Positions 7,961 through 36,328 of a stretch of 36,328 nt of DNA are shown here, piece by piece. Under the pieces are notes generated by a model, which worked only from the letters and a program-made list of their open reading frames with translations, had not been told where the DNA came from and ran no database searches. Both the position numbers and the translations under genes were made by a program. Origin of the DNA: Candidatus Geohabitans tengchongensis. GTDB lineage: Bacteria > Sysuimicrobiota > Sysuimicrobiia > Sysuimicrobiales > Humicultoraceae. The stretch covers positions 242,173 to 278,500 of the forward strand of contig JAVKIH010000001.1 in the NCBI GenBank assembly GCA_031459625.1, written 5' to 3'. Numbering within the stretch: position 1 is the stretch's first letter; the number at the start of each line of letters is the position of its first letter.

Positions 7961-8056
7961 GCTCTCCGACAGGGCAAACTCGAAGCGATTCGAGGACGCA
8001 AAGCCACGGGGCCTCCCGGAGCGATCCGGGAGGCCAGCCGGGCCGCCGAAGAGGGC
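7961..8056 (+). ncRNA. c-di-GMP-I (GEMM) riboswitch
   Basis: CGACAGGGCAAAC-TCGAA-GCGA-TTCGA-GGACGCAAAGCC-ACGGGGCC-TCCCGGA-GCGA-TCCGGGA-GGCCAGCCGGGCCGCCGAA matches the GEMM core (GGCAAAC...GNRA...GACGCAAAGC...GCCGA). P1 GCTCTC/GAGGGC; CACAAT -10 at 7947-7952. Confidence 0.92.
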
Positions 8057-9714: not shown

Positions 9715-11120
9715 AGCCGCCTGCTGGCCCGGCCGGCCGCTCCCGCACGCGCCTCCGGCGGGAGCCGCGGCGGGGCGCCGGGCCCCGGTCCGGCGGCGTG
9801 GCCTGTGACGAGCGGGGCGCGCTGACGCTGGTGGCGCTGCTCATCATCCTCGTCGTCCTGGTGATCGGGGCGGGGGTGCTGAACAGCCTCCTGGGGGAGG
9901 CGGCGGGCAGCATCAGCTACCGCTACGGCGCCAACGCCTTCCTCGTCGCGGAGGGCGGGCTCAACTGGGCCGCCGCCCGCCTGCGCCAGGTGGACGCCGC
10001 CACCTTTGCGGGCCCCGTGACCCAGTCGCTCCTGGCCGCGGGGGGTCAGCCGGTCGGGGAGTTCACCGTGCAGGTGCGCTGCGTGGATGGCAGGCCGGTG
10101 GGGCCTGATGCGTGCGCCACCGCGCCCCCGTCCCACCGGCGGCTGGTGCGGGCGGAAGGCTTTGTCCCCACCCGGGCGGGGGCGCTCGGCCAGCGCGTCC
10201 TGGAGGCGGTGCTGGAGCAGGACACCTTCTTCCGGCACGCGGTGTGCGGGTACGAGGGCGTGACGCTCGACCAGGGCGTGACCGTCCAGGGGAATGTGGG
10301 CAGCGAGGCCGACCTCATGGTCGGAGGCCCGCGGACCAACCCGGCGCGGATCCGACGGGCCCCGGACGGCAGCCAGCCGGGCAACGCCTACGCCGTCGGG
10401 ACGATCACCTGCAGCGCGGCGGCAGACTGCAAGACGCCCGTGGAGCAGGTGGAGGGGACAGTCAACCCTGGCCAGGCCCCCGGGTCGGTCTGCCCCAACC
10501 GCACCGAGGTGCGGCAGACCTTTGTCTGCACTCCGGGCACCACCGACGTCACCGTCGGTCCCCCGGGCGCCACCTTCACCTTTACCGCCGCCAACGCCCG
10601 CAGCCTGCGGAACCTGGCGACCGAGCGCGACACGACGATCGTCTTCCAGACCACCGCCCCAGGCGAGGTCCTGGAGGTACACCTGGAGACGCTCACGGCC
10701 GGGCAGCGCACGCGCTTCATCGTGCAGGGCCCCGGCCGGGTGCGCCTCTCCGTGAACAGCCAGATGGTCCTGAACCAGCAGGCCCGCTTCGGCCTGGTGG
10801 ACGCCGACCAGAACGGCAGCCCGGACGACGCCAACGGCGACGGGGTCCTGGACCTGGTCCAGGCGGAGCGCCTGGTCGTCCTCAGCTGCAATAATGGGAA
10901 CCCCACCCCCGCGCTGGCCTTCAACCAGACCGGGCAGCTCAGCGGGCTGTTCATCGTCCCCAACGGCACGGTGCAGATGGACCAGGCCCAGCTCAGCAAC
11001 GGGGCCATCCTGGCCGGCCGGGTGCAGTTCGACCGCAGCACGGCCTTCACCTTCGACGCCACCGCCCTCAATGTCGGATTCGGGTTCACCCGGCTGATCG
11101 CCTGGCAGGACCTGCCCTGA
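9711..11120 (+). CDS. PilX/GspK-like tip pilin with large beta-rich C-terminal domain
   Basis: ATGA overlap with the upstream gene; ERG|ALTLVALLII (no E5), A...AEGGLNWA, C-terminal G...VPNG.V, GAI.A..V and terminal W.D. Confidence 0.75.
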   Translation: MKPPAGPAGRSRTRLRREPRRGAGPRSGGVACDERGALTLVALLIILVVLVIGAGVLNSLLGEAAGSISYRYGANAFLVAEGGLNWAAARLRQVDAATFAGPVTQSLLAAGGQPVGEFTVQVRCVDGRPVGPDACATAPPSHRRLVRAEGFVPTRAGALGQRVLEAVLEQDTFFRHAVCGYEGVTLDQGVTVQGNVGSEADLMVGGPRTNPARIRRAPDGSQPGNAYAVGTITCSAAADCKTPVEQVEGTVNPGQAPGSVCPNRTEVRQTFVCTPGTTDVTVGPPGATFTFTAANARSLRNLATERDTTIVFQTTAPGEVLEVHLETLTAGQRTRFIVQGPGRVRLSVNSQMVLNQQARFGLVDADQNGSPDDANGDGVLDLVQAERLVVLSCNNGNPTPALAFNQTGQLSGLFIVPNGTVQMDQAQLSNGAILAGRVQFDRSTAFTFDATALNVGFGFTRLIAWQDLP

Positions 11121-11156: not shown

Positions 11157-11966
11157 TCACCCGCGCAACCGGGCGGGGAGGAGGCTCGCGGCGGCGAAGG
11201 TGCCGATGGCCAGCAGCACGATCGTCCCCCCGGCGGCCAGATCGAGGTAGAAGGCGGCGACCATGCCGCCGACGACCGCCAGGAGGGCCACCGCCACGGC
11301 GAGGATCAGCGTGCGCCGGAAGCTGCGGGCCAGGCGCAACGCGGTCAGCGCCGGCAGGACGATGAGGGCGCTCGTCAGCAGCACCCCGACGATGCGCATG
11401 GTGACGCCGATGACCAGCGCGACGAGCCCGGTGAAGAGCAGGTTGAGGGCGTCCACGGGGAGACCCTGCACGCGCGCCGCCTCCTCGTCGAAGGTGACCG
11501 TGAACAGCTCCTTGTAGAAGGCCGCCACCGTCCCCAGCACGAGCACGCCGAGCCCGAGGATCACCCACAGGTCCAGCGGCTGGACGGCCGTCAGCGCCCC
11601 GAAGAGGTAGGCGAAGAGGTCGACGGTGAAGCCGTCGGCCAGCCCGAGCAGCACCACCGCCAGCGCGAAGCCGCCCGAGAGGAAGACCGCCAGGGCCGCC
11701 TCGCCAAACAGGCCCCCGCGGCTGCGCAGGCGCTCGATCCCCAGAGCTCCGAGGACCGCGGCCCCCAGCGCTCCCGCCACCGGGTAGATGCCGGCGAGCA
11801 GGGCGGCGGCGATCCCGGCGAGCGCCACGTGGGAGAGGGTGTCGGCGATCAGGCTGAGGCGGCGCAGGACGAGGAAGACCCCCACCACGGCGGCCACCGT
11901 CCCCACCATGGCGCCGGCCAGCAGCGCCCGCTGCATGAAGCCGTACTGCAGGACCTCGGGGAGCAC
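11157..11966 (-). CDS. znuB: Zn/Mn ABC transporter permease
   Basis: FMQRALLAG, LRRLSLIADTLSHVALAG, YLFG, VGVLL..AL...PA (ABC-3 family). Confidence 0.9.
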   Translation of the reverse strand: MLPEVLQYGFMQRALLAGAMVGTVAAVVGVFLVLRRLSLIADTLSHVALAGIAAALLAGIYPVAGALGAAVLGALGIERLRSRGGLFGEAALAVFLSGGFALAVVLLGLADGFTVDLFAYLFGALTAVQPLDLWVILGLGVLVLGTVAAFYKELFTVTFDEEAARVQGLPVDALNLLFTGLVALVIGVTMRIVGVLLTSALIVLPALTALRLARSFRRTLILAVAVALLAVVGGMVAAFYLDLAAGGTIVLLAIGTFAAASLLPARLRG

Positions 11967-11968
11967 GG

Positions 11969-12742
11969 CTAGTGGGTGTGCGCCACCACCCAGCTCTCCG
12001 GGCGGTAGAGCTGGGCCAGGGCCCCGGAGCGCAGCGCCTCCTCGGGGGGGCCGTGAAAGACCAGGGTGCGGTTCAGACAGGCGAGCTGGGTGACCTCGCG
12101 CGCCACCACCCCGATGTCGTGCGAGACCAGGAGGATGGTGGTGCCGCGCTCCTCGTTGAGCCGGCGCAGCAGGCCGTAGAACTGCTCCTGCGCCTCCACG
12201 TCCACGCCCACCGTCGGCTCGTCCAGCACCAGCAGGTCGGGCTCGCCCGCCAGCGCCCGGGCGATGAAGACCCGCTGCTGTTGCCCGGCGCTGAGGCGGC
12301 CCACCGGCTGCGCCTCATGCGCCTGCATGCCCACGGTGGCCAGGGCGCGGCGCGCGGCGGCCACATCCTCCGGGCGGAAGCGCCGCCCGAGCCCCCGCCG
12401 CCCGCAGCGCCCGCTCAGCACCACCTCCAGGGCCGTGGCGGGGAAGCGGGCCTCGAAGGCCACAGCCTTCTGCGGGACGTAGCCCACGCGGTGCCAGCCG
12501 GTGAAGGCGGGCAGCTCCTGCCCGAAGAGGCGCACGTGCCCGCACTGGGGCCGCACCAGCCCCAGCAGGACGCGCAGCAGCGTCGTCTTCCCGGAGCCGT
12601 TCGGGCCGATCAGCCCCAGCACGTCTCCGGCCCGTACGGTGAGCGAGACCCGGTCGAGCACCCGCTCGCGGCCGAAGTCGACGCAGACGTGCTCGACCTC
12701 GGCGACGGGCGGGCGGTCGGCGTGGCGCCAGGGCGCGCTCAT
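11969..12742 (-). CDS. znuC: Zn/Mn ABC transporter ATP-binding protein
   Basis: GPNGSGKTT, GYVPQ, LSAGQQQRV, LDEPT, VSHD, C-terminal HTH (His-Thr-His); ATGA overlap with znuA. Confidence 0.9.
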   Translation of the reverse strand: MSAPWRHADRPPVAEVEHVCVDFGRERVLDRVSLTVRAGDVLGLIGPNGSGKTTLLRVLLGLVRPQCGHVRLFGQELPAFTGWHRVGYVPQKAVAFEARFPATALEVVLSGRCGRRGLGRRFRPEDVAAARRALATVGMQAHEAQPVGRLSAGQQQRVFIARALAGEPDLLVLDEPTVGVDVEAQEQFYGLLRRLNEERGTTILLVSHDIGVVAREVTQLACLNRTLVFHGPPEEALRSGALAQLYRPESWVVAHTH

Positions 12743-13719
12743 CGACACGCCAGCCCCTCGGCCAGGTGCTGGAGGTTCTCCGCCATGACGGTGAGGTAGG
12801 TGCGCCCGGCCCGGCGCTCCTCGGGGGTCAGCCCCTCCAGCGGGTTGAGGACGCGCGTGCGGGCCCCTACCTCGCGGGCCAGCGTCTCGGCCAGGCGCGG
12901 GCTCAGCAGGGTCTCGGTGTAGACGACCCGGACGCCGTGGCGCCGCGCCTCGCGCACCAACTCGCGCAGCCGGGCAGGGGAGGGTTCTGCCTCGGGGCTG
13001 AGGCCGGTGATGGCGATCATGCGCAGCCCGTAGCGGCGGGCCAGGTAGGCGAAGGCGCCGTGGGTGGTGATGAAGGTGCGGCGCCGGCAGTCGCGCAGCG
13101 TGGCGGCGTACCGGCGGTGCAGCGCCTCGAGCTCGGCCTGGAAGCGGGTGGCGTTCCGTGCGTACAGGTCCGCGCCGGCCGGGTCGACCGCCTGCAGCCC
13201 GCGCAGGATCGCCGCCACCTGCCGCTGCGCCAGCACCGGGTCGAGCCAGACGTGCGGGTCGACGGCCTGGGCCGGCCCGCGCTCGCCGGCCGCTCCGCGC
13301 CCGCCGGCCGGCGCACCCGCGTGCGGGTCCTCATGGGGCGTTGCACGGAGGAGGGGCAGGCCGGCGGTCGTCTCCACCACGACCGCATCGTCCGGGAGGT
13401 CGCGCCGCAGCCGGTCCACCCAGGGTTCGAAGCCGGCCCCATTGTAGATGAGGAGGCGGGTGCGGCTCACCCGGGCCAGCTGCTGGGGTGAGGGCTCGTA
13501 GTCGTGCGGCTCGGCGCCGGGCGGGACCAGTGTGGTGACGTCGATCCGGTTGCCGCCCACGCGCCTGGCGAACTCCGCCAGGGTGTCGAAGGAGGCAGTC
13601 ACCGGGACGCCTCCGCCGCGTGGGGCGGGCCGGGCGCACGCGGCCAGCGCCAGGAGCAACACCAGGCCCAGCGCGGGCCGTGACCATCCGACGGTCCGGC
13701 TGGACGCGCGCTCGCTCAT
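12739..13719 (-). CDS. znuA: Zn ABC transporter substrate-binding lipoprotein (ZnuA/AdcA)
   Basis: Lipobox LAAC, EPHDYEP, DPHVWLDP, H.AF.YLA, E.EPSP, LNPLEG. Confidence 0.9.
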   Translation of the reverse strand: MSERASSRTVGWSRPALGLVLLLALAACARPAPRGGGVPVTASFDTLAEFARRVGGNRIDVTTLVPPGAEPHDYEPSPQQLARVSRTRLLIYNGAGFEPWVDRLRRDLPDDAVVVETTAGLPLLRATPHEDPHAGAPAGGRGAAGERGPAQAVDPHVWLDPVLAQRQVAAILRGLQAVDPAGADLYARNATRFQAELEALHRRYAATLRDCRRRTFITTHGAFAYLARRYGLRMIAITGLSPEAEPSPARLRELVREARRHGVRVVYTETLLSPRLAETLAREVGARTRVLNPLEGLTPEERRAGRTYLTVMAENLQHLAEGLACR

Positions 13720-14210
13720 GCTCCGGCCTCAGGGCGTCGCCCCCGGCAGGGACGGCAGTACCCGAACAGCTCCAGCGCGTGCTCCGTCACCTGGAACCCG
13801 CGGACCCGCCGGCCGTCGATGGGCGGCAGGGGGCAGGCGCGGAGCGGGCGGATCGTCCCGCAGGCGAGGCAGACCAGGTGGTGGTGGTGCCGGCCGCGCC
13901 CCGCCGGCTCGTACCGTGCCGGGCCGTCGCCCAACCACACCTGCCGCACCAGGCGCCCCCGCACCAGCGTGTCGAGCGTGCGGTAGACGGTGACGAGTCC
14001 GACCCGCGGGTGGAGCCGGCGGGCGCGGCGGTGGATCTCCTCGGCGGTTTGCGCACAGGTGAGGGCCTGGAGGGTGCGCAGCACGGCGCGGCGCTGCACC
14101 GTGAGCCGCCGACCCTGACGCCGGAACGGCCGGGTGAGGTCGTCGGACGCCGCCGGGGGGGAGGGGGATCCGCGGGGGGCCGTGTTAATTGAAATGGAAT
14201 TTCGTTTCAT
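13716..14210 (-). CDS. zur: Fur-family regulator, probably Zur
   Basis: LT.QR..VL, TVYRTL, HHHHLVC..CG, ELFGYC..C; first gene of the znu operon. Confidence 0.8.
   Translation of the reverse strand: MKRNSISINTAPRGSPSPPAASDDLTRPFRRQGRRLTVQRRAVLRTLQALTCAQTAEEIHRRARRLHPRVGLVTVYRTLDTLVRGRLVRQVWLGDGPARYEPAGRGRHHHHLVCLACGTIRPLRACPLPPIDGRRVRGFQVTEHALELFGYCRPCRGRRPEAGA
14190..14209. promoter_or_regulatory. Putative Zur/Fur operator
   Basis: AT-rich imperfect palindrome TGAAATGGAA|TTTCGTTTCA (8/10 symmetric) between the divergent zur-znu and YibE/F genes. Confidence 0.65.
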
Positions 14211-15546: not shown

Positions 15547-16140
15547 TTACGGTCCGGGACTCTCCGGGTCGGCGCCCGCCAGGACCGCCTCGGCCACGGC
15601 GCGGAGCGGTCGCCGGGAGTTGCGGCTGGCCCGCTGCAGGCGCAGGTAGGCCTCCTCTTCGCTCAGTCCGTAGCGGCGCATGAGGACGCCCTTGGCCCGC
15701 TCCACCACCTTGCGCGTGGCCAGCTGCGCTTCCAGCTCGGCCACCCGTGCCGCCCCGGCCTGCAGGTCGCGGAACCGGGCCAGGGCCAGCTCGATGGCCG
15801 GCACCAGGTCGCTCTCGCGCAGCGGCTTCATCAGGTAGGCCATGGCGCCGCTGCGGCGGGCCCGGTCCACCAGAGCCCGGTCGCCATAGGCGGTCAGCAC
15901 GATCACCGGCACCTGCTCCCGCTGCGCCAGGGCCTCCGCAGCGGCCAGCCCGTCCATCCCCGGCATCTTGATGTCCACGAAGACCAGGTCCGGGCGCAGC
16001 TTGCGCACCAGGTCCACCACGCGCGCCCCGTCCCCCGCCTCACCGACGACGCGGTACCCCTGTTCCTCCAGCATGGTCCGCAGCCCCATGCGGATGACCG
16101 CCTCGTCGTCGGCGATGACGATGCGTAGGGGTGCCGGCAC
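15547..16140 (-). CDS. REC-ANTAR response regulator (PdtaR/EutV-like)
   Basis: IADDE, DIKMPG.DG, LTAY, KP receiver motifs; RK.VERAKG.LM...GLSEEEAY..LQ..S ANTAR domain. Confidence 0.92.
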   Translation of the reverse strand: MPAPLRIVIADDEAVIRMGLRTMLEEQGYRVVGEAGDGARVVDLVRKLRPDLVFVDIKMPGMDGLAAAEALAQREQVPVIVLTAYGDRALVDRARRSGAMAYLMKPLRESDLVPAIELALARFRDLQAGAARVAELEAQLATRKVVERAKGVLMRRYGLSEEEAYLRLQRASRNSRRPLRAVAEAVLAGADPESPGP

Positions 16141-16141
16141 G

Positions 16142-17758
16142 TCAGGTCCCCTCCGGGTGGGGGAAGGAGAGGGTGACGACCGTGCCCTCCCCCGAGGCGA
16201 AGACCACCTCTCCCCCCAGGTCTTCGGTGGCCAGCGCCCGCACGATGCGCAGCCCCAGCGTCTCGCCGTTGCCCTGGGCGGCGGCCAGCCCCACGCCGTC
16301 GTCGCGCACCTCCACGACGCACCGGCCGTCCTGCCGCCCCAGGTGGATGGCGATGCGCCCGCGCCTCCGGCCGGGGAAGGCGTGCTCGAGGGCGTTCTGC
16401 ACCAGTTCGTTCACCGCCAGGGCCACCGAGGTGGCCGGTTGCGAGGGCAGGTAGAGGTCGTCCCCCGTCACCGTCAGCTCCACCTCCAGCGGCGGGCGGG
16501 CCATGTTCTGCGTGACGGTGCGGGCGACCCGCTCGAGCAGCTCGCGCACGTTCACCATGCGGAACCCTTCCACCGAGAGGATCTCGTGGACCGCGGCGAT
16601 GCTCAGGATGCGATTCACCGTCTCGGTGAGGACCTCACGCCCGGAGACCTCGCGCCCCCCGCGCAGCTGCAGCCGCAGGAGCATGGCGATGGTCTGCAGG
16701 TTGTTCTTCACGCGGTGGTGCATCTCCCGCACCACGGCCGAGCGCACCACCAGCGTGCTGTTCTCGATGGCCAGCGCCGTCTGGTGGGCCAGCGTGGAGA
16801 GGCGCTCGACCTCGTCGGGCGACCAGCGATGGGGGCGGGCGCGGGCGGCCAGGAAGACGCCGATGGCCTTCTCCCGCACCACCAGCGGCACCGCCAGCGC
16901 CGCCCGCAGCGCCGCGCCGGGGACGGTGGGAGCCAGGTCGGGGACGGGCACGGCCCGTTCCTCACGGAGCGCCTGCGCCGCCAGGTCGGCGAAGGCGGCC
17001 GCCTCAGGGCCCACGGCGGCCCCGTGCGCGGCGGTGGGCTCGAGGCGCCCCTGCTCGTGGTCGTAGAGGAGGAGCGCGCAGTGGTCGGCGGCCATCAGCC
17101 GCGCCGCCATCTCCACGATCACCCCGACCATCTCCTCGACGTAGAGCGGCGAGGTGAGCGTCTTGCTGGCCTCGGCCAGGGTGGAGAGCTCGTGCAGCCG
17201 CCGGCGCATCGAGTCGTACAGCGCGGCCTTCTCGATGGCGCCCGCGGCCAGGTCGGCGATGGTCTCCAGGAGCTCCAGCTCGTCGGGGCCGTAGGCGTGC
17301 ACGGCGGTGGTCTGGACGTTGAGGGCCCCCAGCACCCGCGCCCCGCTGCGCAGCGGCACCGCCGCCAGCGAGCGAAACGCCGTCTCGCGCGTCTCCGGCA
17401 GGTAGACGAAACGGGGGTCGCTGGCGGCGTCGCTGCTGGCCACCGGGGTCTCGTGGGCGGCCGCCCATCCGGTGAGGCCCTCCCCCCAGCGCAGGCGGGC
17501 CCGGCCCACCGCTTCCGGCGCCAGACCCGTCGTGGCGCGCAGCACCAGGTACTCGCCGTGGGGATCGAGGAGGTAGATGGAGCAGGAATCCATGCCCATG
17601 ACCTCGGCCGTCTTGCGCGTGATGAGGGCCAGCGTCGTGTCCAGGTCGAGGGTGGAGCCGATGGCCCGGCTGATCTCGCGCAGGGCGGCCAGCTCGGCCT
17701 CCTTGCGGGCCAGGCGCTCCTGCAGCGCCGCCGGATCAGGCAGAGCGGAGTCGGTCAT
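16142..17758 (-). CDS. Soluble GAF-GAF-HisKA_2-HATPase sensor kinase (PdtaS/EutW-like)
   Basis: Two GAF-like domains, EMHHRVKNNLQ H-box, NELVQNALEHAF, DDGVG, LGL.IV; no TM segment. Confidence 0.9.
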   Translation of the reverse strand: MTDSALPDPAALQERLARKEAELAALREISRAIGSTLDLDTTLALITRKTAEVMGMDSCSIYLLDPHGEYLVLRATTGLAPEAVGRARLRWGEGLTGWAAAHETPVASSDAASDPRFVYLPETRETAFRSLAAVPLRSGARVLGALNVQTTAVHAYGPDELELLETIADLAAGAIEKAALYDSMRRRLHELSTLAEASKTLTSPLYVEEMVGVIVEMAARLMAADHCALLLYDHEQGRLEPTAAHGAAVGPEAAAFADLAAQALREERAVPVPDLAPTVPGAALRAALAVPLVVREKAIGVFLAARARPHRWSPDEVERLSTLAHQTALAIENSTLVVRSAVVREMHHRVKNNLQTIAMLLRLQLRGGREVSGREVLTETVNRILSIAAVHEILSVEGFRMVNVRELLERVARTVTQNMARPPLEVELTVTGDDLYLPSQPATSVALAVNELVQNALEHAFPGRRRGRIAIHLGRQDGRCVVEVRDDGVGLAAAQGNGETLGLRIVRALATEDLGGEVVFASGEGTVVTLSFPHPEGT

Positions 17759-25056: not shown

Positions 25057-25776
25057 GTGGCGGCGGACGACCGGCGTGGCGTCTTCATCACCCTGGAGGG
25101 CGTGGAGGGGGCGGGCAAGACCACGCAGGCGCGGCGGCTGGTGGCGGTGCTGGAAGCCCGCGGAGTCCCGGTCCTGTACTCCCGCGAGCCCGGGGGGACG
25201 GCCATCGGCGAGCGCATCCGGGAGATCCTCCTGGACGACCGGCACGGCGAGATGGCCGCCGAGACGGAGATGCTGCTCTTCGCCGCCTCCCGCGCCCAGT
25301 TCGTGCGGGAAGTGGTCCTCCCCGCGCTGGCCGCTGGCCGGGTGGTCGTCTCCGAGCGGTACGTCGAAGCCTCCCTCGCCTACCAGGGGTACGGCCGCGG
25401 GCTCGATGTCGGGGTGGTCCGCGCCGTGAACGCGGTGGCCACCGCCGGCTGCGTCCCCGACCTGACCCTCCTGCTCGACCTCCCGCCCGAGGTCGGATTG
25501 GCCCGCGCCCGCCACGCGCCGGGGAAGGCGGGCACCCCGGGACGCGGCGACCGCCTGGAGCAGGAGACGGAGGCGTTCCACCGGCGCGTGCGGGAAGGAT
25601 TCCTCGCGCTGGCGGCAGAATCGCCCCAGCACATCGTCGTCGTGGACGCGTCGCGCAGTGTTGACGAGGTGCACGCGGCGATCCTGGCGGCGGTGGACCG
25701 CCTGCTGGCCGCCCGGGACTGCCGTCCCCCGGAGCCCCGGCCGGAGCCCGGGTCGGCGGAGCGCCGTGGCGGCTGA
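25057..25776 (+). CDS. tmk: Thymidylate kinase
   Basis: FITLEG.EGAGKTTQ, REPGGT, LLFAASRAQ, S.AYQG.GRG, PDLT.LLD, DRLE. Confidence 0.95.
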   Translation: MAADDRRGVFITLEGVEGAGKTTQARRLVAVLEARGVPVLYSREPGGTAIGERIREILLDDRHGEMAAETEMLLFAASRAQFVREVVLPALAAGRVVVSERYVEASLAYQGYGRGLDVGVVRAVNAVATAGCVPDLTLLLDLPPEVGLARARHAPGKAGTPGRGDRLEQETEAFHRRVREGFLALAAESPQHIVVVDASRSVDEVHAAILAAVDRLLAARDCRPPEPRPEPGSAERRGG

Positions 25777-25798
25777 GTGCGCGCCGGAGGAGGGGGCC

Positions 25799-26128
25799 AT
25801 CAAACTCGTCCTGGCCGTGGTCCAGGAGCGCGACGCCGGCAAGCTGATGGACGGGCTGACGGCGGCCGAGTTCCAGGCGACGATGCTGGCCAGCACCGGC
25901 GGGTTCCTCCGCGAGGGCAACACGACGATCCTCATCGGGGTGGACGACCGGCAGGTGGACGAGGTGCTGGCCATCATCCGCAAGACCTGCCACCGCCGCG
26001 AGCAGCTGCTCACGCCCATCCCGCCGGTCGTCGAACCGGTGGACTCCTACGTGGCCTACCCCGTGAAGGTCGAGGTCGGGGGCGCCATCGTCTTCGTGCT
26101 GACCGTCGACCGCATGGAGCGCATCTAG
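25799..26128 (+). CDS. darA: c-di-AMP receptor DarA/PstA(Sa)/YaaQ (PII-like, DUF970); probable ATC start, alternative GTG 25766
   Basis: KLVLAVVQ..DA, T.LASTGGFLREGNTT.LIGV, V.VGGA.VFV; tmk-darA-holB synteny as in Firmicutes. Confidence 0.88.
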   Translation: MKLVLAVVQERDAGKLMDGLTAAEFQATMLASTGGFLREGNTTILIGVDDRQVDEVLAIIRKTCHRREQLLTPIPPVVEPVDSYVAYPVKVEVGGAIVFVLTVDRMERI

Positions 26129-26151
26129 CCTTACCGCCCTCGCCCCACCCC

Positions 26152-27183
26152 ATGGCCTTCCGCGACGTCGTCGACCAGCACCACGCGGTGAGGTTGCTGC
26201 GCACGGCCGTTCGGACCGGCCGGCCGAGTCACGCCTACCTGCTCGTCGGACCCGTCGGTGTGGGGCGCCGCACGCTGGCCCTGGCCTTCGCGCAGTACCT
26301 CAACTGCCCCCAGGCCGACCGGGACGCGTGTGGGGTCTGCCGCGATTGCGTCCGCATCGCCCAGGGGCAGCACCCCGACGTACGGGTGTTGGACATGGCG
26401 GCGGACCGCTGGTTCATCCCCCCGCCCCGGGAGCACCGCGGGCGGGAGATCCCCATCGACCAGGTGCGCGCCCTGCGGCAGGATGCAGCCTACCCGCCCT
26501 ACGAGGGCCGGGTGAAGGTCTACATCATCGCCGACGCCGAGCTGCTGAGCCCGGGCGCGGCGAACAGCCTGCTCAAGGTCCTGGAGGAGCCGCCACCTGA
26601 CGTCGTCATCGTCCTCATCGCCGAGTCGACCGTATCGCTGCCCCCCACGGTGCTGTCGCGCTGCCAGGTGGTCCGCTGCGCCTTGCTGTCGGCCAGCGAG
26701 GTGGAGCGCGCCCTGGTGGAGCGCTACGGGGTCCCTGCGGAGCGCGCCCGCTTCCTGGCGGCTATCAGCGCCGGACGGCTGGGCCGGGCGCTGGCCTGGG
26801 CGCAGGACGAGTCGCGGCTGGCGGCGCGCCGCCGCTTCCTCGACCTGCTGGGCGAGCTGGAGACGGCCACCGACACGCAGCGGCTCGACGCCGCCGAGGC
26901 CCTGGCCCGCGACCGGGACCTCCTGCCAGACCTGCTGGAGCTGGCCGCCTTCTGGTACCGCGACCTGCTGGTGTGGCAGGAGACGCAGGATCCGACGCTG
27001 CTGGTGAACCGGGACCGGGAGGCGGAGATCCGGCGCTGGGCGGCGATCCTCACGCCCGAGGACCTCCACCGCCGCTTCGACGCGGTCGAGCACGCCAAGG
27101 ATTCCCTGGCGCGGAACGTCCAGCCCCGCCTCCTGCTGGAGCGCTTCTTCTACCAGCTCCGTTCCCCGGCCGTCCCCGCCTGA
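26152..27183 (+). CDS. holB: DNA polymerase III delta' subunit
   Basis: HAYL..GP.GVG, C..ACG.CR.C Zn module, HPDV, I.IDQVR, AANSLLK.LEEPP, T..SRC. Confidence 0.93.
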   Translation: MAFRDVVDQHHAVRLLRTAVRTGRPSHAYLLVGPVGVGRRTLALAFAQYLNCPQADRDACGVCRDCVRIAQGQHPDVRVLDMAADRWFIPPPREHRGREIPIDQVRALRQDAAYPPYEGRVKVYIIADAELLSPGAANSLLKVLEEPPPDVVIVLIAESTVSLPPTVLSRCQVVRCALLSASEVERALVERYGVPAERARFLAAISAGRLGRALAWAQDESRLAARRRFLDLLGELETATDTQRLDAAEALARDRDLLPDLLELAAFWYRDLLVWQETQDPTLLVNRDREAEIRRWAAILTPEDLHRRFDAVEHAKDSLARNVQPRLLLERFFYQLRSPAVPA

Positions 27184-29857: not shown

Positions 29858-30301
29858 TCAGTCCAGGTCGGTGGCCCACCAGGTGGCGCGCTCTCCCGCC
29901 ACCCACCGGCGGATGCGCTGGCGCAGGGGCGCCGGGAGGAGGTTGCGGCGGTCCAGGTCGTCCAGCGACGACCAGAAGAACTCCAGGTGGGGCTCCCGCG
30001 AGACCGGCGGGGTAGGCGGAGCGAGGTCCTCGGCGACGACCTCGAAGACGTGATTGATCTCGTGGTGACGGCGCCCGCCGTCCTCCCACAGCGCCTCGAG
30101 GCCGCCCAGGTACCCGACGACCCGCACGGCCACGCCCAGCTCCTCTTCCAGCTCGCGGGCGAGGGCCTGGGTGAGGGTCTCGCCCGGGTGGACGGTGCCG
30201 CCGGGCAGGAAGGTGTTCCCCCGTCCCAGCGCGTGTGCCAGGAGCACGGTGCCGTCCTTCAGGATCACCGCCCGCGCGAGCAGCCGGATCGTCTCCGCCA
30301 C
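29858..30301 (-). CDS. NUDIX hydrolase
   Basis: Nudix box PGG.V.PGET...AL.REL.EELG. Confidence 0.9.
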   Translation of the reverse strand: MAETIRLLARAVILKDGTVLLAHALGRGNTFLPGGTVHPGETLTQALARELEEELGVAVRVVGYLGGLEALWEDGGRRHHEINHVFEVVAEDLAPPTPPVSREPHLEFFWSSLDDLDRRNLLPAPLRQRIRRWVAGERATWWATDLD

Positions 30302-30351
30302 GCCCAGCAGGTTCGCGTTGCGCGGCCCCCGCCCCTGCCCGCGAGGCCGCC

Positions 30352-30395
30352 TATAATGCCCGTGACGGTGGCGTCCTGGGGGACGCGGCCGTCAC
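30352..30395 (+). promoter_or_regulatory. -10 element and 5'-UTR hairpin of the PLP lyase gene
   Basis: TATAAT 30352-30357, then a 14-bp hairpin GTGACGGT-G-GCGTCC-TGGG-GGACGC-G-GCCGTCAC (30362-30395). Confidence 0.5.
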
Positions 30396-30417
30396 CACAG
30401 GGGGAGGAGGCGGAGCG

Positions 30418-31590
30418 GTGGCGGTGCGAGGGTTCAACACCAGAGCGGTGCACGGCGACGGGTGGCGCGACCCGCTGGGCGCGGTGAGCCCGCCGATCTA
30501 CGAGTCGACGACCTTCCGCTACCGCACCGTGGCCGAGGGGGCGGCGCTCGGTGCGGACCGCGGCGAGGGCTACTACTACACGCGGTGGGGCAACCCCACG
30601 ACGCAGGCCCTGGAGGCGCGGGTCGCCCTGCTGGAAGGGGCGGAGGCGGCCATCGCCACGGGGTCGGGGATGGGGGCGATCAGCACGGTGGTGCTGGGAC
30701 TGGTGGGCCGCGGCGACCTCGTGGTGGCCCCGCGCGCCGTCTACCAGGCCACCTACGAGCTCTTCACCCAGGTGCTGCCCGCCTACGGCGTAGAGGTCAC
30801 CCTGCTCGACCGCCCGGCGGTGGAGGCGTACGAGGCGGCGCTGCGGCCGACCACGCGCCTGGTCTACGTGGAGACGCCGAACAACCCGTTGCTCGACATC
30901 ACCGACATTGCCGCGGTGGCCCGCCTGGCGCGTGACCGCGGCGCCCTCACCGTGGTCGACAACACCTTCGCCACGCCCTACAACCAGCAGCCGCTGGCCC
31001 TCGGCGCCGACCTGGTGGTGCACAGCCTGACCAAGTACCTGGGGGGCCACGCCGACGTCACCGCCGGGATCTTCTGCGGGTCGCGGGAGCTCGTGCTGCG
31101 GCTGCGGCCGCGCTTCCGCATCTTCGGCCCCGTGCTCGACCCCTTCGGCGCCTGGCTGGTCCTGCGCGGGGTGCGCACGCTGGGGGTGCGCATGGAGCGG
31201 CACAACCAGAACGGGCAGCGCCTGGCCGAGTTCCTGGCCGCCCACCCGCGGGTGGAGCGGGTGCACTACCCCGGGCTGCTGGACCATCCGGGCCACGCCG
31301 TGGCGCGCCGGCAGATGCGCGGCTTCGGCGGCATGCTCTCCTTCGAGGTGCGGGGCGGCTTCGAGGCCGGGGTGCGCGTGGTGGAGGGGCTGCGCCTGGC
31401 CACGATGGCCGTGAGCCTGGGGTCGCTGGAGACCCTCGTCACCCACCCGGCCTCCACCACCAGCGTGGGCATCCGGCCGGAAGACCGGGCCCGGGCCGGG
31501 ATCCGGGAGGGGCTGATCCGGGTCTCGGTGGGGATCGAGGACGCCGACGACCTCATCGCCGACTTCGGCCAGGCGCTGGACCGGGCCTGA
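30418..31590 (+). CDS. Cys/Met metabolism PLP enzyme (methionine gamma-lyase / cystathionine gamma-synthase family)
   Basis: GTG 30418 after GGAGG; PIY.STTF, YTR.GNPT, SGMGAI, ETPNNP, VDNTFATP, HSLTKYLGGH (PLP Lys), VSLG, R.SVG.ED. Confidence 0.92.
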   Translation: MAVRGFNTRAVHGDGWRDPLGAVSPPIYESTTFRYRTVAEGAALGADRGEGYYYTRWGNPTTQALEARVALLEGAEAAIATGSGMGAISTVVLGLVGRGDLVVAPRAVYQATYELFTQVLPAYGVEVTLLDRPAVEAYEAALRPTTRLVYVETPNNPLLDITDIAAVARLARDRGALTVVDNTFATPYNQQPLALGADLVVHSLTKYLGGHADVTAGIFCGSRELVLRLRPRFRIFGPVLDPFGAWLVLRGVRTLGVRMERHNQNGQRLAEFLAAHPRVERVHYPGLLDHPGHAVARRQMRGFGGMLSFEVRGGFEAGVRVVEGLRLATMAVSLGSLETLVTHPASTTSVGIRPEDRARAGIREGLIRVSVGIEDADDLIADFGQALDRA

Positions 31591-31636
31591 TCCGGAGGGA
31601 ACCTGGAGGCGCTGCACGGGAGGCCGGCAGCGAGGG

Positions 31637-31680
31637 CTTGACGCACCCTTGTCGTCGTCTTGACACATCTCGTCTATGCT
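31637..31680 (+). promoter_or_regulatory. Pho-box-like array (3 x 11-bp direct repeats) plus -10
   Basis: CTTGACGCACC / CTTGTCGTCGT / CTTGACACATC in exact 11-bp phase; TATGCT -10 at 31675-31680. Confidence 0.7.
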
Positions 31681-31687
31681 GGCGCTG

Positions 31688-32644
31688 ATGGCCGCGAGCC
31701 CACCGTCGGCAGGCCCGGGTCGGAGCGCCGCATCCGAACCGGCTCCCTTCGCCCGCGAGTTCGCCCTCCTCGAGGAGATGACCCGGACGATCGAGGCGGC
31801 GGCCCAGGCCCTGGTCGCCGGCCTGGAGGGGCGTGAGCCCTTGTCCCAGGTGTGGGCCCGGGTGCGCGACCTGGAGCACCAGGGGGACGCCGTGGCCCGC
31901 GACCTGTTCGATGCGCTGGTCACCCCGCGGGTGGGCGGTCCGGCGCCTGAGGCCTTCAAGGCCCTCACCGGGCTGCTGGACGACGTCCTGGACGCCGTCG
32001 AGGCGGCGGCCGCCCGGCTGGCCCTCCACCGCATCCGCCGCGTGCTGCCGGCCGCGGTGAGCCTCGGGCGCATCGTCCTCGAATCGGCCGGGGTCCTCCG
32101 CCAGGCCGTGGCCGCGCTGCGGGGGACGCAGGACCTCTTCCCGCTGACCCGCGCCCTCCACCGGCTGGAGAACCAGGGGGACGACGTATTGCGGGACGCC
32201 ATCGAAGCCCTCTTCGCCGGGGAGGCCCACCCCAGGGACATCATCAAGTGGAAGGACATCTGCGAGATCCTGGAGCAGGGCACCGACCGGTGCGAGGACA
32301 TCGCCAACGTGCTGGAGACCTTCCTGGTGCAGACCGGCGGCGGGGACCACCTGGTGGCGGGGCAGGTGGTCCTGGACGTGGGACGCCACGAGGTGCGGGT
32401 GGGCGGCGCTCCCGTCCCGCTCTCGGCCAAGGAGTTCGGGGTGCTGCACCTGCTGCTGCGCCACCAGGGGAAAGTCGTGCGGCGCGAGCGGCTGCTGCAC
32501 GAGGTGTGGGGCGGGGACTACTTCGGCGACGCCCGCACCCTGGACACCCACATCGGCTGGCTGCGCAAGAAGCTCGAGGCCCGGGGCGGCGTGCGCATCG
32601 TCGCCGTCCGCGGCATCGGCTACCGGCTGGACCTGACGGGCTGA
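31688..32644 (+). CDS. DUF47 (PhoU-like) domain fused to an OmpR/PhoB-type winged-helix DNA-binding domain (track start 31676)
   Basis: DUF47 motifs LEHQGD, LDDVLD, LENQGD, KWKDI.E.LE..TD.CED.AN.LE; QTGGGD linker; Trans_reg_C motifs L..KEF..L..L, V.R..LL..VWG, RT.D.HI..LRKKL, VRG.GYR. ATG 31688 lies 7 nt after the -10. Confidence 0.88.
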   Translation: MAASPPSAGPGRSAASEPAPFAREFALLEEMTRTIEAAAQALVAGLEGREPLSQVWARVRDLEHQGDAVARDLFDALVTPRVGGPAPEAFKALTGLLDDVLDAVEAAAARLALHRIRRVLPAAVSLGRIVLESAGVLRQAVAALRGTQDLFPLTRALHRLENQGDDVLRDAIEALFAGEAHPRDIIKWKDICEILEQGTDRCEDIANVLETFLVQTGGGDHLVAGQVVLDVGRHEVRVGGAPVPLSAKEFGVLHLLLRHQGKVVRRERLLHEVWGGDYFGDARTLDTHIGWLRKKLEARGGVRIVAVRGIGYRLDLTG

Positions 32645-32728
32645 GGGCGCGGTGTCGCTCCTGCTCCACGCTGCCTGAACCCCGCCCGCACCCCGGACGT
32701 GGCGCTCCGCGGCTGGCCGCGGCCGCGA

Positions 32729-32794
32729 ATTGACCTGCGCTTCACCGACAGTTCCCCTACGCTTCACCCAGCCTTGCCTCTGGCACGGTAGCGT
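32729..32794 (+). promoter_or_regulatory. Pho-box-like array (5 x 11-bp direct repeats) plus -10 upstream of pstS
   Basis: ATTGACCTGCG / CTTCACCGACA / GTTCCCCTACG / CTTCACCCAGC / CTTGCCTCTGG; TAGCGT -10 at 32789-32794. Confidence 0.75.
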
Positions 32795-32899
32795 GCAGGA
32801 CGGCGGCGGGATCCTCGCCGCGCCGTCGGGGGGCGCGGACGCGCCGTAGGCGGTGTTGCTGCCGCCGCACATCCGATGCGGGGAGAGGAGGAGACGGTG

Positions 32900-33895
32900 A
32901 TGCGCAGCGCGTTGGCGCGGATGGTTGGCGCCCTGGTGGGGCTGGTGCTGGCGGTGGTGCCGGCAGCGGCCCAGCAGCCCATCAAGCTCGACACCCGCCT
33001 GGTGGCCTACCGGCCGGTGAGCGGGATCAGCGGCAACCTCACCAGCGTGGGGTCCGACACGCTCAACAACCTGATGACGCTGTGGGCGGAGGGGTTCCGC
33101 CGCTTCTACCCCAACGTGCAGATTCAGATCGAGGGGAAGGGGAGCAGTACGGCTCCGCCGGCGCTGATCGCCGGCACCGCCCAGCTCGGCCCCATGTCCC
33201 GGCCGATGAAGGCCGGCGAGGTGGACGCTTTCGAGAAGAAGTACGGGTACAAGCCGACGGCCGTCCGGGTCGCCGTGGACGCACTGGCGGTCTTCGTCCA
33301 CAAGGACAACCCCATCCGGTGCCTGACCCTGGAACAGGTGGACGCCATCTTCTCGAAGACGCGCCGGGCGGGGCACCGGGAGGACATCAGGACCTGGGGG
33401 CAGCTCGGCCTGACCGGAGAGTGGGCCAACCGACCGATCAGCCTCTATGGCCGCAACTCCGCCTCGGGAACCTACGGCTACTTCAAGGAGCACGTCCTGC
33501 GGAACGGTGACTTCAAAGACGAGGTGAAGGAGCAGCCCGGGTCCGCCGCTGTGGTGCAGGGCGTGACCGTCGACCGCTACGCCATCGGGTACAGTGGCAT
33601 CGGCTATGCCACGGCAGGGGTGCGGGCTGTTCCGCTGGCCGAGCAGGCCGGCGGGCCCTGCGTGGAGGCCAACCAGCAGAACGCTTACGCCGGCACCTAC
33701 CCGCTGGCACGGTTCCTCTTCATTTACGTGAACAAGCCGCCCACCCGTGGCGTTGACCCGCTGGTTCGAGAGTTCCTTCGGTTCGTCCTGTCACGGCAGG
33801 GACAGGAGATCGTGGTCAAGGACGGCTACTTCCCCGTCTCCGCGCCGATTGCGCTGGAAGAACTCGCCAAGGTGACGGCCGGGGGCGGGAGCTAG
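32900..33895 (+). CDS. pstS: Phosphate ABC transporter substrate-binding protein
   Basis: AGGAGG SD; signal peptide ending [38 protein letters not shown]. Confidence 0.95.
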
Positions 33896-33902
33896 CGTCG
33901 CG

Positions 33903-36164
33903 GTGGCGCTCCCGCAGCTGAAGCCGTTGCCTGCCGGCGGGCCCTCCGCCGCGGGGGCCCGTCCCGCCCCCCCGGCGGCTGCGCCCGCCTGGCGTCTGCG
34001 GGCGGACCGGCTGGCCGCGGGAGTCGTCCGCCTCGGCGGTCTGGCCGTCGTCCTCTCCATCCTGGCCATCCTCGCCGTCATCCTGGTGGAAGTCTTGCCC
34101 CTGGCGCGTCCGGCCCGGGCTCGGGCGGTCGGAACGGTCCCGGCGGTGGGGGTGGGCCGGCCGCTGGTGGCGGACGTGGACGAGCACCGCCAGGTCGCGG
34201 TCGTCGTCGGCGACGGCGGGTTGGGCGTCGTGCCCATCGGCCCCGAGGCCCGCCGGCCGGCAGACCTGCCGCTTTGGGACGTGCCCGTGGCCGGGGCGGC
34301 GCGGGCGGGGCGAACGCTCCTCCTCGGGCTGTCCGACGGACGGGCGCTGGGCGTGGAGGTGGCGTACGACGTCGTGTTCTCGGCCGACGGCCGGCGGACC
34401 GTCACGCCGCGGGTGTCGGGGGGAGCACCGCTGGTGGTGGATCCCTCGGGCCGCTCCCTGGCCCGGGTGGCCTATGCGCGGACACGCGCGGGGCCGGTGG
34501 TGGCAGCGCAGACCGGGCCGCGGGAGGTCACCCTGGTGCGCGTCCGGGAACGCCGGGCCCTCGTGGGAGCATCGACCCGCGAGGTGGTGCGCGACCGGCT
34601 GACCCTGCGGATCGCGGGGGAGGTCACCGCCCTCGCCCTGGACGGGCGGGGTGACGCCCTCTTCGTCGGGACTTCGGTGGGCCAGCTCCTGGCTCTGGCG
34701 CCGGCCGGCCCACGGCCTCGGGTCCTGGCGGTGGCCCAGGTCAGCCGCCAGGGGACGGCCATCACCGTGCTGGGCTTCCTCCTGGGGGACCGCACGGTGA
34801 TCACAGGAGACGCCGCGGGGCGGGTGGCCTCGTGGCAGCTCCTCGGCCAGACCACCGGGCGGCTGAGGCTGCAGCGCATCCACGAGTTCGCGCCGCTGGC
34901 CGCACCGGTGACGGCCTTCGCCGCGTCGCACCGGGACAAAGGGTTCCTGGTGGGGGACGCCGACGGCCGGGTGCACCTGGGTTACGGGACGACGGGGGAA
35001 ACCCGGCTGCGGGTGCGGGCGGTCCGCGGAGGGCTGCGCGCCCTGGCGTGGGCGCCGAAAGGGGACGGCTTCCTCGCCATCGACGCCGCCGGTCGGCTGA
35101 GCCACTGGGCGCTCGAGGTGGGGCATCCCGAGGCCACGCGGCACACGCTCTTCGGCAGGGTCTGGTACGAAGGCTACGAGGCGCCGGCCTACGTGTGGCA
35201 GTCCACCGGTGGCACCGATGACTTCGAGCCCAAGCTCAGCCTGACGCCGCTGGCCTTCGGGACGCTCAAGGGCACCGCCTATGCCCTGCTCGTCGCCGTG
35301 CCGGTGGCCCTGGTGGGTGCGCTGTACGCGGCGCAGTTCATGCACCCGACGCTCCGGGCGCTGGTGAAGCCCGTCGTGGAGATCATGGCCGGGCTGCCGA
35401 GCGTGGTGCTGGGCTTCCTGGCCGGCCTGTGGCTGGCTCCGCGGGTAGAGCGGGTGGTCCCCGGCATCATCCTCATGCCGCCCGCGATGGCCGCGGCGAT
35501 CCTGGCCGCGTTCCTGCTCTTCCGCCTGGTGCCCGCCCCGGTCCGGGGCCGGGTGCGCCCGGGCATGGAGCTGGTCGTGCTGGTCCCCGCCGTCCTCCTG
35601 GGAGGGTGGCTGGCGCTGCGGCTGGGCGGCCTGGTCGAGGCGGCCCTCCTCGACGGGGACTTCCGCACCTGGCTGCCGCGTGCGGTCGGGCTCACCTATG
35701 ACCAGCGCAACGCCCTGGTGGTGGGGCTGGCCATGGGCTTCGCCGTCATCCCCATCGTCTTCACCATCGCCGAGGACGCGCTGGCCAACGTCCCGCCGCA
35801 TCTGGCGGCCGGCGCGCTGGCCCTGGGCGCCACTCGCTGGCAGACCGCGCTCCGGGTCGTCCTGCCGACGGCCAGCCCCGGCATGTTCTCCGCGGTGATG
35901 GTGGGCTTCGGGCGCGCCGTAGGGGAGACGATGATCGTCCTCATGGCCACCGGGAACACGCCGGTCATGGACTGGTCGCCCTTCAGCGGCTTCCGGGCGC
36001 TCTCGGCGAACGTCGCGGTGGAGCTGCCCGAAGCGCCCTACGGAGGGACCCTGTACCGCGTCCTGTTCCTGGCGGCCCTGCTGCTCTTCGTCACCACGTT
36101 CCTGGTGAACACCGCGGCCGAGGTGGTGCGCCTGCGGCTGCGGCGACGGTATCAGGCGCTGTGA
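33903..36164 (+). CDS. pstC: Phosphate ABC transporter permease PstC with large WD40/beta-propeller-like insertion
   Basis: WYE.Y..P.YVWQS, PL.FGTLK, KP.VEIMA.LPSVV.GF, DQRNA, ALGATRWQT, GRAVGETM.VLMATGN. Confidence 0.92.
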   Translation: MALPQLKPLPAGGPSAAGARPAPPAAAPAWRLRADRLAAGVVRLGGLAVVLSILAILAVILVEVLPLARPARARAVGTVPAVGVGRPLVADVDEHRQVAVVVGDGGLGVVPIGPEARRPADLPLWDVPVAGAARAGRTLLLGLSDGRALGVEVAYDVVFSADGRRTVTPRVSGGAPLVVDPSGRSLARVAYARTRAGPVVAAQTGPREVTLVRVRERRALVGASTREVVRDRLTLRIAGEVTALALDGRGDALFVGTSVGQLLALAPAGPRPRVLAVAQVSRQGTAITVLGFLLGDRTVITGDAAGRVASWQLLGQTTGRLRLQRIHEFAPLAAPVTAFAASHRDKGFLVGDADGRVHLGYGTTGETRLRVRAVRGGLRALAWAPKGDGFLAIDAAGRLSHWALEVGHPEATRHTLFGRVWYEGYEAPAYVWQSTGGTDDFEPKLSLTPLAFGTLKGTAYALLVAVPVALVGALYAAQFMHPTLRALVKPVVEIMAGLPSVVLGFLAGLWLAPRVERVVPGIILMPPAMAAAILAAFLLFRLVPAPVRGRVRPGMELVVLVPAVLLGGWLALRLGGLVEAALLDGDFRTWLPRAVGLTYDQRNALVVGLAMGFAVIPIVFTIAEDALANVPPHLAAGALALGATRWQTALRVVLPTASPGMFSAVMVGFGRAVGETMIVLMATGNTPVMDWSPFSGFRALSANVAVELPEAPYGGTLYRVLFLAALLLFVTTFLVNTAAEVVRLRLRRRYQAL

Positions 36165-36328
36165 GGGGCGGCGCAGCGGCGGTGCGGCGGGAGGGCTCCG
36201 GCGGGCTGTGGCGCAGCGGCGACCTCTTCGTCTGGCTCAGCGGCGGCGCGCTGGCCCTGGCCTTGCTCATGGTAGCCGGCCTCGTCGGGCTGGTGGCGGC
36301 CCACGGGCTCGCGTACTTCTGGCCGCGC
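36161..36328 (+). CDS. pstA: Phosphate ABC transporter permease PstA, 5' fragment (runs off the window)
   Basis: GTGA overlap with the pstC stop; translates ...WRSGDLFVWLSGGALALALLMVAGLVGLVAAHGLAYFWPR, like the N-terminus of long-form PstA. Confidence 0.8.
   Translation, partial: MRGGAAAVRREGSGGLWRSGDLFVWLSGGALALALLMVAGLVGLVAAHGLAYFWPR

Follow-up and report, generated by a model that had tools for sequence, protein, structure and literature searches.

A PitR domain fused to a PhoB-type winged helix: a candidate one-component phosphate regulator in CSP1-3/Sysuimicrobiota

We analysed a 36,328-nucleotide stretch of DNA from Candidatus Geohabitans tengchongensis (the window), in which a single gene next to the pst genes encodes a PhoU-like domain of the PitR type joined to an OmpR/PhoB winged helix. 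The architecture is conserved in the phylum, and the gene is linked to pst and phoU and lost along with them. A Pho-box-like repeat stands at a fixed distance from the -10 element before pst, ugpB, phnS2 and mgsA. The fusion is probably a one-component activator of the phosphate-starvation regulon that fills the role of PhoB-PhoR with no phosphorylation step. A one-component phosphate regulator had been proposed in a sequence-only reading of this DNA. Conservation, neighbourhood, co-loss, near-exclusion with pst-linked PhoB-PhoR and the operator speak for that proposal, with the correction that the input domain is PitR and not PhoU proper.

Results

Architecture of the fusion protein

The gene is one open frame of 318 amino acids (Table 1). 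Its product matches PF01865 (PhoU_div/DUF47) over residues 19–213 (E 5.7e-12; 45.9 bits, curated cut-off 24.4) and PF00486 (Trans_reg_C) over residues 241–314 (E 1.2e-25; 89.8 bits, cut-off 26.2). The Pfam search gave no match to PF00072 (Response_reg), and the protein is thus without a receiver domain and its phospho-accepting aspartate. NCBIfam response-regulator models matched residues 206–317 only, far under their cut-offs; among these, the PhoB model TIGR02154 scored 73 bits (cut-off 296; residues 221–315 only). The best winged-helix matches were RegX3 and this PhoB model. The sequence-only reading had described one continuous frame leading from DUF47 through QTGGGD to an intact Trans_reg_C domain with no receiver, directly upstream of the pst genes, and each of these points holds.

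a. Table 1. Features of the fusion locus, in window coordinates.
Feature	Position	Strand	Evidence or remark
Three 11-bp direct repeats (cTTGAC, cTTGTC, cTTGAC), putative Pho-box-type operator of the fusion gene	31637..31669	+	
-10-like hexamer TATGCT	31675..31680	+	15 nt after TT of last repeat, 7 nt before ATG
Fusion gene, PitR/DUF47 + OmpR/PhoB winged helix	31688..32644	+	ORF, Pfam, homologues, AF2 model
PitR (PF01865) six-helix bundle, residues 19–213	31742..32326	+	Pfam, fold match, conservation
Diverged loop, residues 77–90	31916..31957	+	Comparison with stand-alone PitR
Inter-domain joint QTGGGD, residues 215–220	32330..32347	+	Conservation
OmpR/PhoB winged helix, residues 221–316	32348..32635	+	Pfam, mapping onto PhoB
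Five 11-bp direct repeats (TTGAC, TTCAC, TTCCC, TTCAC, TTGCC), putative pstSCAB-phoU operator	32729..32783	+	
-10-like hexamer TAGCGT	32789..32794	+	15 nt after TT of last repeat
pstS, phosphate-binding protein	32900..33895	+	TIGR02136 above cut-off
pstC, permease, long form, 753 aa	33903..36164	+	TIGR02138 192.7 bits, just below 196.45 cut-off
pstA, start	36161..36328	+	pstB, phoU beyond window, same contig (G000:C1, to 281777)

An AlphaFold2 model of the fusion (pLDDT 88; 42 sequences in the alignment) shows a run of six long helices (residues 22–216) that lead almost directly into the winged helix. The top fold match is the PitR-type protein BT4638 (3L39; Foldseek TM 0.87 of target, rmsd 2.0), and a VIA fit to 3L39 gave Z 28 over 203 residues. 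The same structure served as template for modelling S. aureus PitR (PMC11705898). PhoU proper (PF01895) acts in the same pathway and has a related fold (Z 20–22 to 1T72, 1XWM, 2I0M and 1SUM). Unlike it, the fusion has no PF01895 match and lacks both PF01895 repeats of PhoU; the sole PF01895 match in the genome is the gene at C1:281169-281735, and a separate phoU closes the pst operon. Homodimer prediction with two copies of residues 18–318 scored 0.00, evidence neither for nor against a dimer. Databases annotate the start at ATG 31676 (322 aa); because this codon sits within the -10 hexamer, 31688 is the likelier start.

Distribution of the fusion

The fusion is found in 52 of the 94 genomes of CSP1-3/Sysuimicrobiota, full-length in 46 and as fragments at contig ends in six. 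At least 120 homologues (the best 120 of 265) all have both domains, with 62–100% identity, and the inter-domain spacing is identical in all 116 homologues in which it is measurable. A GTDB-wide scan returned 52 loci. Twenty-one of these are fusions, titled Armatimonadota, Ca. Fervidifonticultor or unclassified, while the other 31 are at most 42% identical and cover about one domain. Fervidifonticultor belongs to CSP1-3/Sysuimicrobiota (PMC11604079; the main text of that paper contains neither 'pst' nor 'regulator'), and no full-length fusion was found outside this phylum in the searches made. The best 150 matches among 1.84 billion 50%-cluster representatives comprised one intact full-length fusion plus fragments, and the ESM Atlas gave generic winged-helix clusters only, under 0.9. 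No longer fused form was present among 7992 candidates of 558–2000 aa, which speaks weakly against such forms. Two candidate divergent fusions, P0224 and P0247, were discarded, both being receiver-domain regulators. The representatives search also yielded P0168 (451 aa), which has a PhoU-like N-terminal half (by eye) and a C-terminal DUF47/PitR domain; it is a single record and could be a read-through.

An assembly chimera, or a chance read-through of adjacent pitR and phoB, might be suspected from the adjacent and co-oriented pitR and phoB of some relatives, and from unitigs of the probable source runs, which break near the joint. It is excluded by the full-length form in 46 genomes, the fixed spacing, the monophyly of both domains (below) and one contig of another study (run X5), which spans window positions 30201–34470, joint included, at ~97% identity.

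Conserved residues of the PitR domain

Acidic residues E63/D67, D98/D99/D102, E161/D165 and E196/D200/E203/D204 are invariant in the PitR domain of the fusions, and the four acidic motifs they form are present in 119–120 of the 120 homologues listed (best 120 of 265). The E/D-x3-D motifs are shared with 104 stand-alone PitRs. In PhoU structures such acidic motifs bind metal and phosphate. The motif has been named E(D)XXXD (PMC5686610).

When 42 fusions were compared with the 104 stand-alone PitRs, all invariant acidic residues and the KWK motif were seen to be kept, the N-terminal phenylalanines and the TF.TP.DREDI loop to be lost, and a set of fusion-specific conserved residues to be gained (W56, R60, A70, R71, F74, F151 and H153-T154-R155). 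The TF.TP signature occurs in none of the 120 homologues listed (best 120 of 265), and the loop at residues 77–90 is among the least conserved parts of the family; the stand-alone DUF47 that the window's genome encodes beside pit reads TFITPLDREDI. Both the acidic motifs and the divergence of this segment, noticed earlier in the window's copy, are properties of the family. The joint contains an invariant glycine (G217). The window's copy departs from the family at K65Q, E136V and H153L.

Genomic neighbourhood

Fusion loci from 51 of the 52 fusion genomes were surveyed. A pst, phoU or pit gene is present in 43 of the 51, with pstS directly downstream in 29, and pit or pitR is adjacent in only two. 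Where pst lies elsewhere, phoU is often the fusion's neighbour (L045, L047, L049, L054, L094). Among the fetched loci, the transcription unit of the fusion never includes a kinase gene; four loci have unrelated pairs at a distance of 1–7 kb.

Presence and absence follow the same pattern. Sixty-nine genomes are pstB-positive: 42 have the fusion only, 22 PhoB only, four both and one, 64% complete, neither. Among the 25 genomes without a pstB match, 18 have neither regulator, six the fusion and one PhoB. The match is exact in the window's own family (f1, 34 genomes), with fusion and pstB in 22 and neither in 12; in all these counts the two genes are linked, so that an incomplete bin may be missing both, and relatives do not count as independent. 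Five fusion-less genomes are 95–96% complete. All five encode Pit and none has an intact phoU locus: PhoU gave no match in four, and in the remaining one, G016, the locus is a remnant.

This G016 locus (L232, G016:C57:1-1700) is a remnant or misassembled pho locus, in which the beginning of the fusion continues in frame as the end of pstB, with an arsC-like ORF (by eye), a repeat array and phoU fragments after it.

Pit was considered as the fusion's partner and rejected: fusion-less genomes keep Pit, and no array is found at the separate pitR-pit operon of the window's genome. The fusion gene follows Pst/PhoU, not the Pit transporter. At least three pstSCA types occur beside the fusion in different genomes, namely one with long PstC/PstA (as in the window), a short type and a third at ~30% PstS identity (window 32900–36328 compared with L038, L043, L050 and L057). 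Each type has the same repeat array, which suggests that the transporter has been swapped under a retained regulator.

Alternatively, the PitR domain could bind no Pi itself and be a docking module that PhoU or the PstB motor captures during transport, sequestering the regulator at the transporter and leaving its role as activator the same. Such docking would agree with the tracking of Pst/PhoU instead of Pit, with phoU as the frequent neighbour where pst is elsewhere, and with the loss of the PitR-specific loop and phenylalanines and the gain of a new conserved surface. In S. aureus, PitR acts together with its transporter, and PhoPR output rises when PitR is lost, with total Pi unchanged (PMC13170248). 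We nevertheless consider docking unlikely: none of the acidic motif residues varies, which fits a ligand site that has been kept, and S. aureus PitR gave no two-hybrid signal with PhoU, PstB or PhoR, negatives on which the authors themselves urge caution (PMC11705898).

The winged helix and its descent

The winged helix is 44% identical to that of E. coli PhoB over 87 aa. Mapping onto PhoB shows that E177, W184, G185 and E191 have kept equivalents (E267, W274, G275 and D281); W184 and G185 belong to the activation loop of PhoB, and E177 and E191 to an acidic patch (PMC3973317). T194 and the wing residue R219 are also kept. Four residues differ, V190, D192, V197 and R201, the first two of which are in the activation loop. 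R201, the guanine-reading arginine of PhoB, is W291 in the fusion. W291 was considered as the cause of T instead of G in the box, an idea dropped because a regulator with a different recognition helix also stands by TTCAC repeats.

Both domains of the fusion are monophyletic in trees. The PitR domain forms its own long-branched clade, outside the phylum's own PitR clade (quick tree, 50 rows). The winged-helix tree resolves no sister group, and an AU test gave p 0.45 on descent from the phylum's pst-linked PhoB. The careful version of this tree has 40 rows, with long-branch rows left out, including the regulator on contig C4 of the window's genome. In the quick tree, the C4 regulator is a long branch inside the PhoB groups (support 87); it scores 173 bits on the PhoB model, and the best match of its kinase is of the heavy-metal type. 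Origin of the fusion by simple deletion between adjacent pitR and phoB is attractive from synteny, and the trees give it no support.

Operator repeats and promoters

A matrix fitted to 39 pstS-upstream regions of fusion loci describes an 11-bp repeat, cTT(C/G)(A/G)C. Thirty-three of the 39 regions score at least 29 bits for four repeats (mean 28.1, compared with 7.6–8.4 in 10 shuffles). Of the six low regions, four belong to upstream paralogous genes for binding proteins, and each of two tandem pstS pairs contributes one. A score filter removed a further five, divergent pstS regions (four of fusion loci, one of a PhoB locus), and arrays are visible in the four from fusion loci. An exact three-repeat pattern matched 59 of the 94 genomes, as against seven for the reversed control; in family f5 it matched one of 12.

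A both-strand scan of the window's genome found just two sites. The top site is that before pstS (32729–32783; 34 bits for four repeats), which was in the training set. The site before the fusion gene (31637–31669), which was not, scored 24.5 bits with the matrix trained on pstS promoters only. These are the two repeat arrays that the sequence-only reading had picked out; they are real, and are the only ones in the genome. The repeats at 31637–31669 are a putative autoregulatory operator.

In 24 of the 33 arrays a TAnnnT hexamer begins 15 nt beyond the TT of a repeat, and in 30 it lies within 1 nt of this distance. The same 15-nt offset occurs in E. coli phoA (GTCA to TATAGT) and at pstS in nine of ten PhoB genomes, where the repeat is TTAA(C/T). 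Arrays of (A/G)TTCAC with 11-bp spacing and the same -10 offset also precede genes for Gly/Met-rich membrane or exported proteins beside other OmpR-type pairs (L203-L210, L221-L224, L228, L238, L240), and constitute a predicted second conserved regulon of the phylum. Since these other pairs share TTCAC spacing and offset, the geometry says 'OmpR-type activator' and not the fusion specifically.

The arrays overlap the -35 zone, and several repeats resemble TTGACA. Considering also that PhoU and PitR are negative regulators, the fusion could be a Pi-dependent repressor, which when loaded with Pi covers the -35 region of pst and leaves on starvation. However, a sigma-70 scan gave no -35/-10 consensus pair and no -35 at 16–18 nt spacing, and the repeats, at 9 or 20 nt from the -10, do not fall where a -35 should. 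The -10 offset, moreover, is the one seen at activator-dependent phoA and at the PhoB-linked pstS of sister genera, and most activation-loop residues are kept. Repression in this manner is improbable.

The -10-to-ATG layout of the window recurs in 19 of 47 fusion loci. With the -10 only 7 nt before the ATG, the fusion transcript probably lacks a leader. At the fusion gene of most relatives there is an extended -10 without an array, so autoregulation would be optional. RNA run X4 yielded contigs with flat depth, informative on neither expression nor start sites.

Among the 50 loci examined, fusion-type arrays precede ugpB (G092), phnS2 (G023, G016) and phoU. The ugp and phn genes are classical members of the Pho regulon. 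In seven loci of family f4, the fusion gene is followed by an array, a -10 and mgsA (methylglyoxal synthase); three of these are in genus g23, with pst elsewhere. An array before mgsA is thus seen beside the fusion in f4, and it is seen as well in the pst locus of one PhoB genome (L046, L051, L052, L106, L109, L113, L122, L179). Methylglyoxal synthase acts on DHAP with release of Pi and is inhibited by Pi (PMC11850910). In the window's genome, no mgsA was found.

Further arrays were observed. In several f3 genomes, an ORF of 63–72 aa (motif RRAEV) has its own array and -10 (L099, L100 and L103, after phoU; L226, L229, L247 and L235); it has no Pfam or NCBIfam match and is a candidate regulon member. 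Three-repeat fusion-type arrays precede the gene for V-type ATP synthase subunit K in two loci, L234 (G046:C95) and L243 (G044:C87), one of them in a genome where the fusion was not found. Fusion-type arrays persist in some fusion-less genomes (G016, G034, G046, G056). The pstS promoters of genus g26 keep PhoB-type TTAAC repeats, and no PhoB orthologue was found in g26.

PhoB-PhoR and other two-component pairs

In genera g21, g24 and g25 the fusion is absent, and the same slot reads (pit)-pitR-phoB-phoR-pstSCAB-phoU. With this regulator and kinase as queries, orthologues at 74% or more were found only in family f4. A 60–66% type occurs in f5 and f7, pst-adjacent in three of 13 fetched loci, and no pst-linked PhoB orthologue was found in the 56 genomes of f1 and f3. 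Four of the 27 genomes with pst-linked PhoB-PhoR also hold the fusion, and all four are g23. Of the six g23 fusion loci, none is beside pst and three are without an array nearby.

The window's genome (2.76 Mb, 94% complete) was checked for phoR/phoB, as had been suggested. It has two REC-OmpR/kinase pairs (C4 and C14), both on other contigs and neither near pst. In the careful tree the C14 regulator falls outside the pst-linked PhoB groups. The main rival explanation is that this universal, WalRK/PhoPR-like C14 pair reads the repeats, and that the fusion is an accessory modulator or regulates a side branch (e.g. mgsA). On the PhoB model the C14 regulator reaches 259 bits and pst-linked PhoB 251, neither attaining the cut-off of 296. 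The C14 regulator and its kinase come close to the PhoB, PhoR and WalRK models, and profiles cannot separate C14 from PhoB. Fusion and PhoB do coexist in the four g23 genomes, and at 94% completeness phoBR could be missing from the genome. On the other hand, PhoB genomes, in which the pst repeats are TTAAC and not TT(C/G)AC, contain the C14 group (97/95 support) too. None of the fetched loci has this group next to pst, the window's genome has no array near either pair, and the absence of a pst-linked PhoB orthologue extends over all 56 f1 and f3 genomes. We judge this explanation very improbable; it and the repressor reading are both less likely than a one-component activator.

Other features of the window

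A c-di-GMP-I-GGC riboswitch aptamer (7964–8051, +; RF03167, 61.3 bits, cut-off 59) lies upstream of an ORF cluster at ~8600–11117, one ORF of which has a prepilin N-methyl motif. At 25057–27183 (+), a cluster comprises tmk, a cyclic-di-AMP receptor (PF06153, DarA/PstA type, 25799–26128) and holB, which suggests c-di-AMP signalling in the phylum. A GAF-GAF-HisKA_2 kinase followed by a REC-ANTAR regulator is encoded at 15550–17758 (-), and a Fur/Zur-type regulator followed by a znuA-type metal ABC transporter at 11160–14210 (-).

Discussion

We propose that in the one-component activator the PitR bundle would take the receiver's place, both as on/off switch and for oligomerisation. When Pi is scarce, the winged helices would assemble along the 11-bp repeats, very probably binding head-to-tail and several at a time. 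Given such binding, activation through contact of the retained PhoB-type loop with sigma region 4 is quite likely, and polymerase would be recruited at promoters without a usable -35. PitR of S. aureus is a homodimer (PMC11705898), so it is plausible that dimerisation, which phosphorylation brings about in PhoB, comes from the bundle here. Once Pi is abundant, this bundle would hold the fusion off, in keeping with the repressive role of PitR in S. aureus (PMC13170248). The most likely off-switch would be Pi plus a divalent metal at the invariant acidic motifs, a proposal on which we are evenly divided; contact of PitR with PhoU or PstB would be the alternative. Direct Pi-metal binding and capture by PhoU/PstB are inseparable by sequence. 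More tentatively, the PhoU-like domain may itself bind Pi (with metal) and switch the PhoB-type domain allosterically, in which case one soluble protein would have replaced the whole phosphorelay.

The winged-helix fold of the fusion is common to PhoB (E. coli), PhoP (B. subtilis, S. aureus, Streptomyces) and RegX3 (Mycobacterium). As for PhoB-type regulators, its predicted boxes are 11-bp tandem repeats at the phoA offset, with pst, ugp and phn as putative targets. Unlike PhoB, PhoP and RegX3, the fusion has no receiver, phosphorylation site or linked kinase, its input domain being PitR, and unlike PhoB it has tryptophan in place of the guanine-reading arginine. Known PitRs (PhoU2, DUF47/PhoU_div, PF01865) are single-domain proteins, nearly always beside pitA (PMC13170248). 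The fusion resembles them in its above-cut-off PF01865 match, 3L39-like six-helix bundle and acidic motifs, and differs from them in carrying a DNA-binding domain, lacking the TF.TP.DREDI loop, forming its own long-branched clade and co-occurring with Pst/PhoU. It likely works like PhoB, yet is not a response regulator, and has a PitR domain, yet is not a Pit accessory protein.

Two kinds of protein comparable to the fusion are already known, kinase-free OmpR-type activators (ToxR, CadC) and archaeal transcription factors bearing PhoU. The archaeal PhoU-family factors consist of an AbrB-like domain and PhoU domains. Like these, the fusion joins a PhoU-like domain to a DNA-binding domain; unlike them, it has another DNA-binding fold, and PitR rather than PhoU. 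It would be an independent bacterial solution. Seven PhoU-like transcription factors are reported in P. furiosus, with no mechanism given where they are listed (PMC6316755). In ToxR, CadC and TcpP, and in ChxR-type proteins, an OmpR-type winged helix is driven without a kinase (PMC5430869, PMC3960148). ToxR and CadC carry the winged helix at the N-terminus, together with a membrane helix and a periplasmic sensor, the reverse of the domain order in the fusion, and ChxR keeps the receiver fold, whereas the winged helix of the fusion is C-terminal to a PhoU-like bundle.

Whether the architecture had been characterised before was also asked. A literature search, most subscription papers being outside its reach, found no description of a PitR-winged-helix fusion. 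The 2026 PitR survey (PMC13170248) treats single-domain PF01865 proteins, and its main text does not contain 'fusion', 'fused' or 'DNA-binding'; this negative covers the main text, and Data S1 (926 genomes) could list such proteins.

How PhoU-like proteins perceive phosphate, through transporter activity or cytoplasmic Pi, is debated (PMC13170248). If the PhoU-like domain does bind Pi directly and switch the DNA-binding domain, the fusion would be without precedent in bacteria as a one-component Pho regulator, and would be the first system to let ligand sensing by a PhoU-family fold be read in a tube as DNA binding. In the known systems, a membrane kinase, an ABC transporter and PhoU are all required. 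With a soluble 318-aa hot-spring protein that has PitR, a DNA-binding output and predicted operators, the question could be addressed using purified components; the protein could also find use as a compact phosphate sensor. The fusion would also represent the displacement of a two-component system by a one-component one within a phylum, and would explain part of the genomes that seem to lack phoBR.
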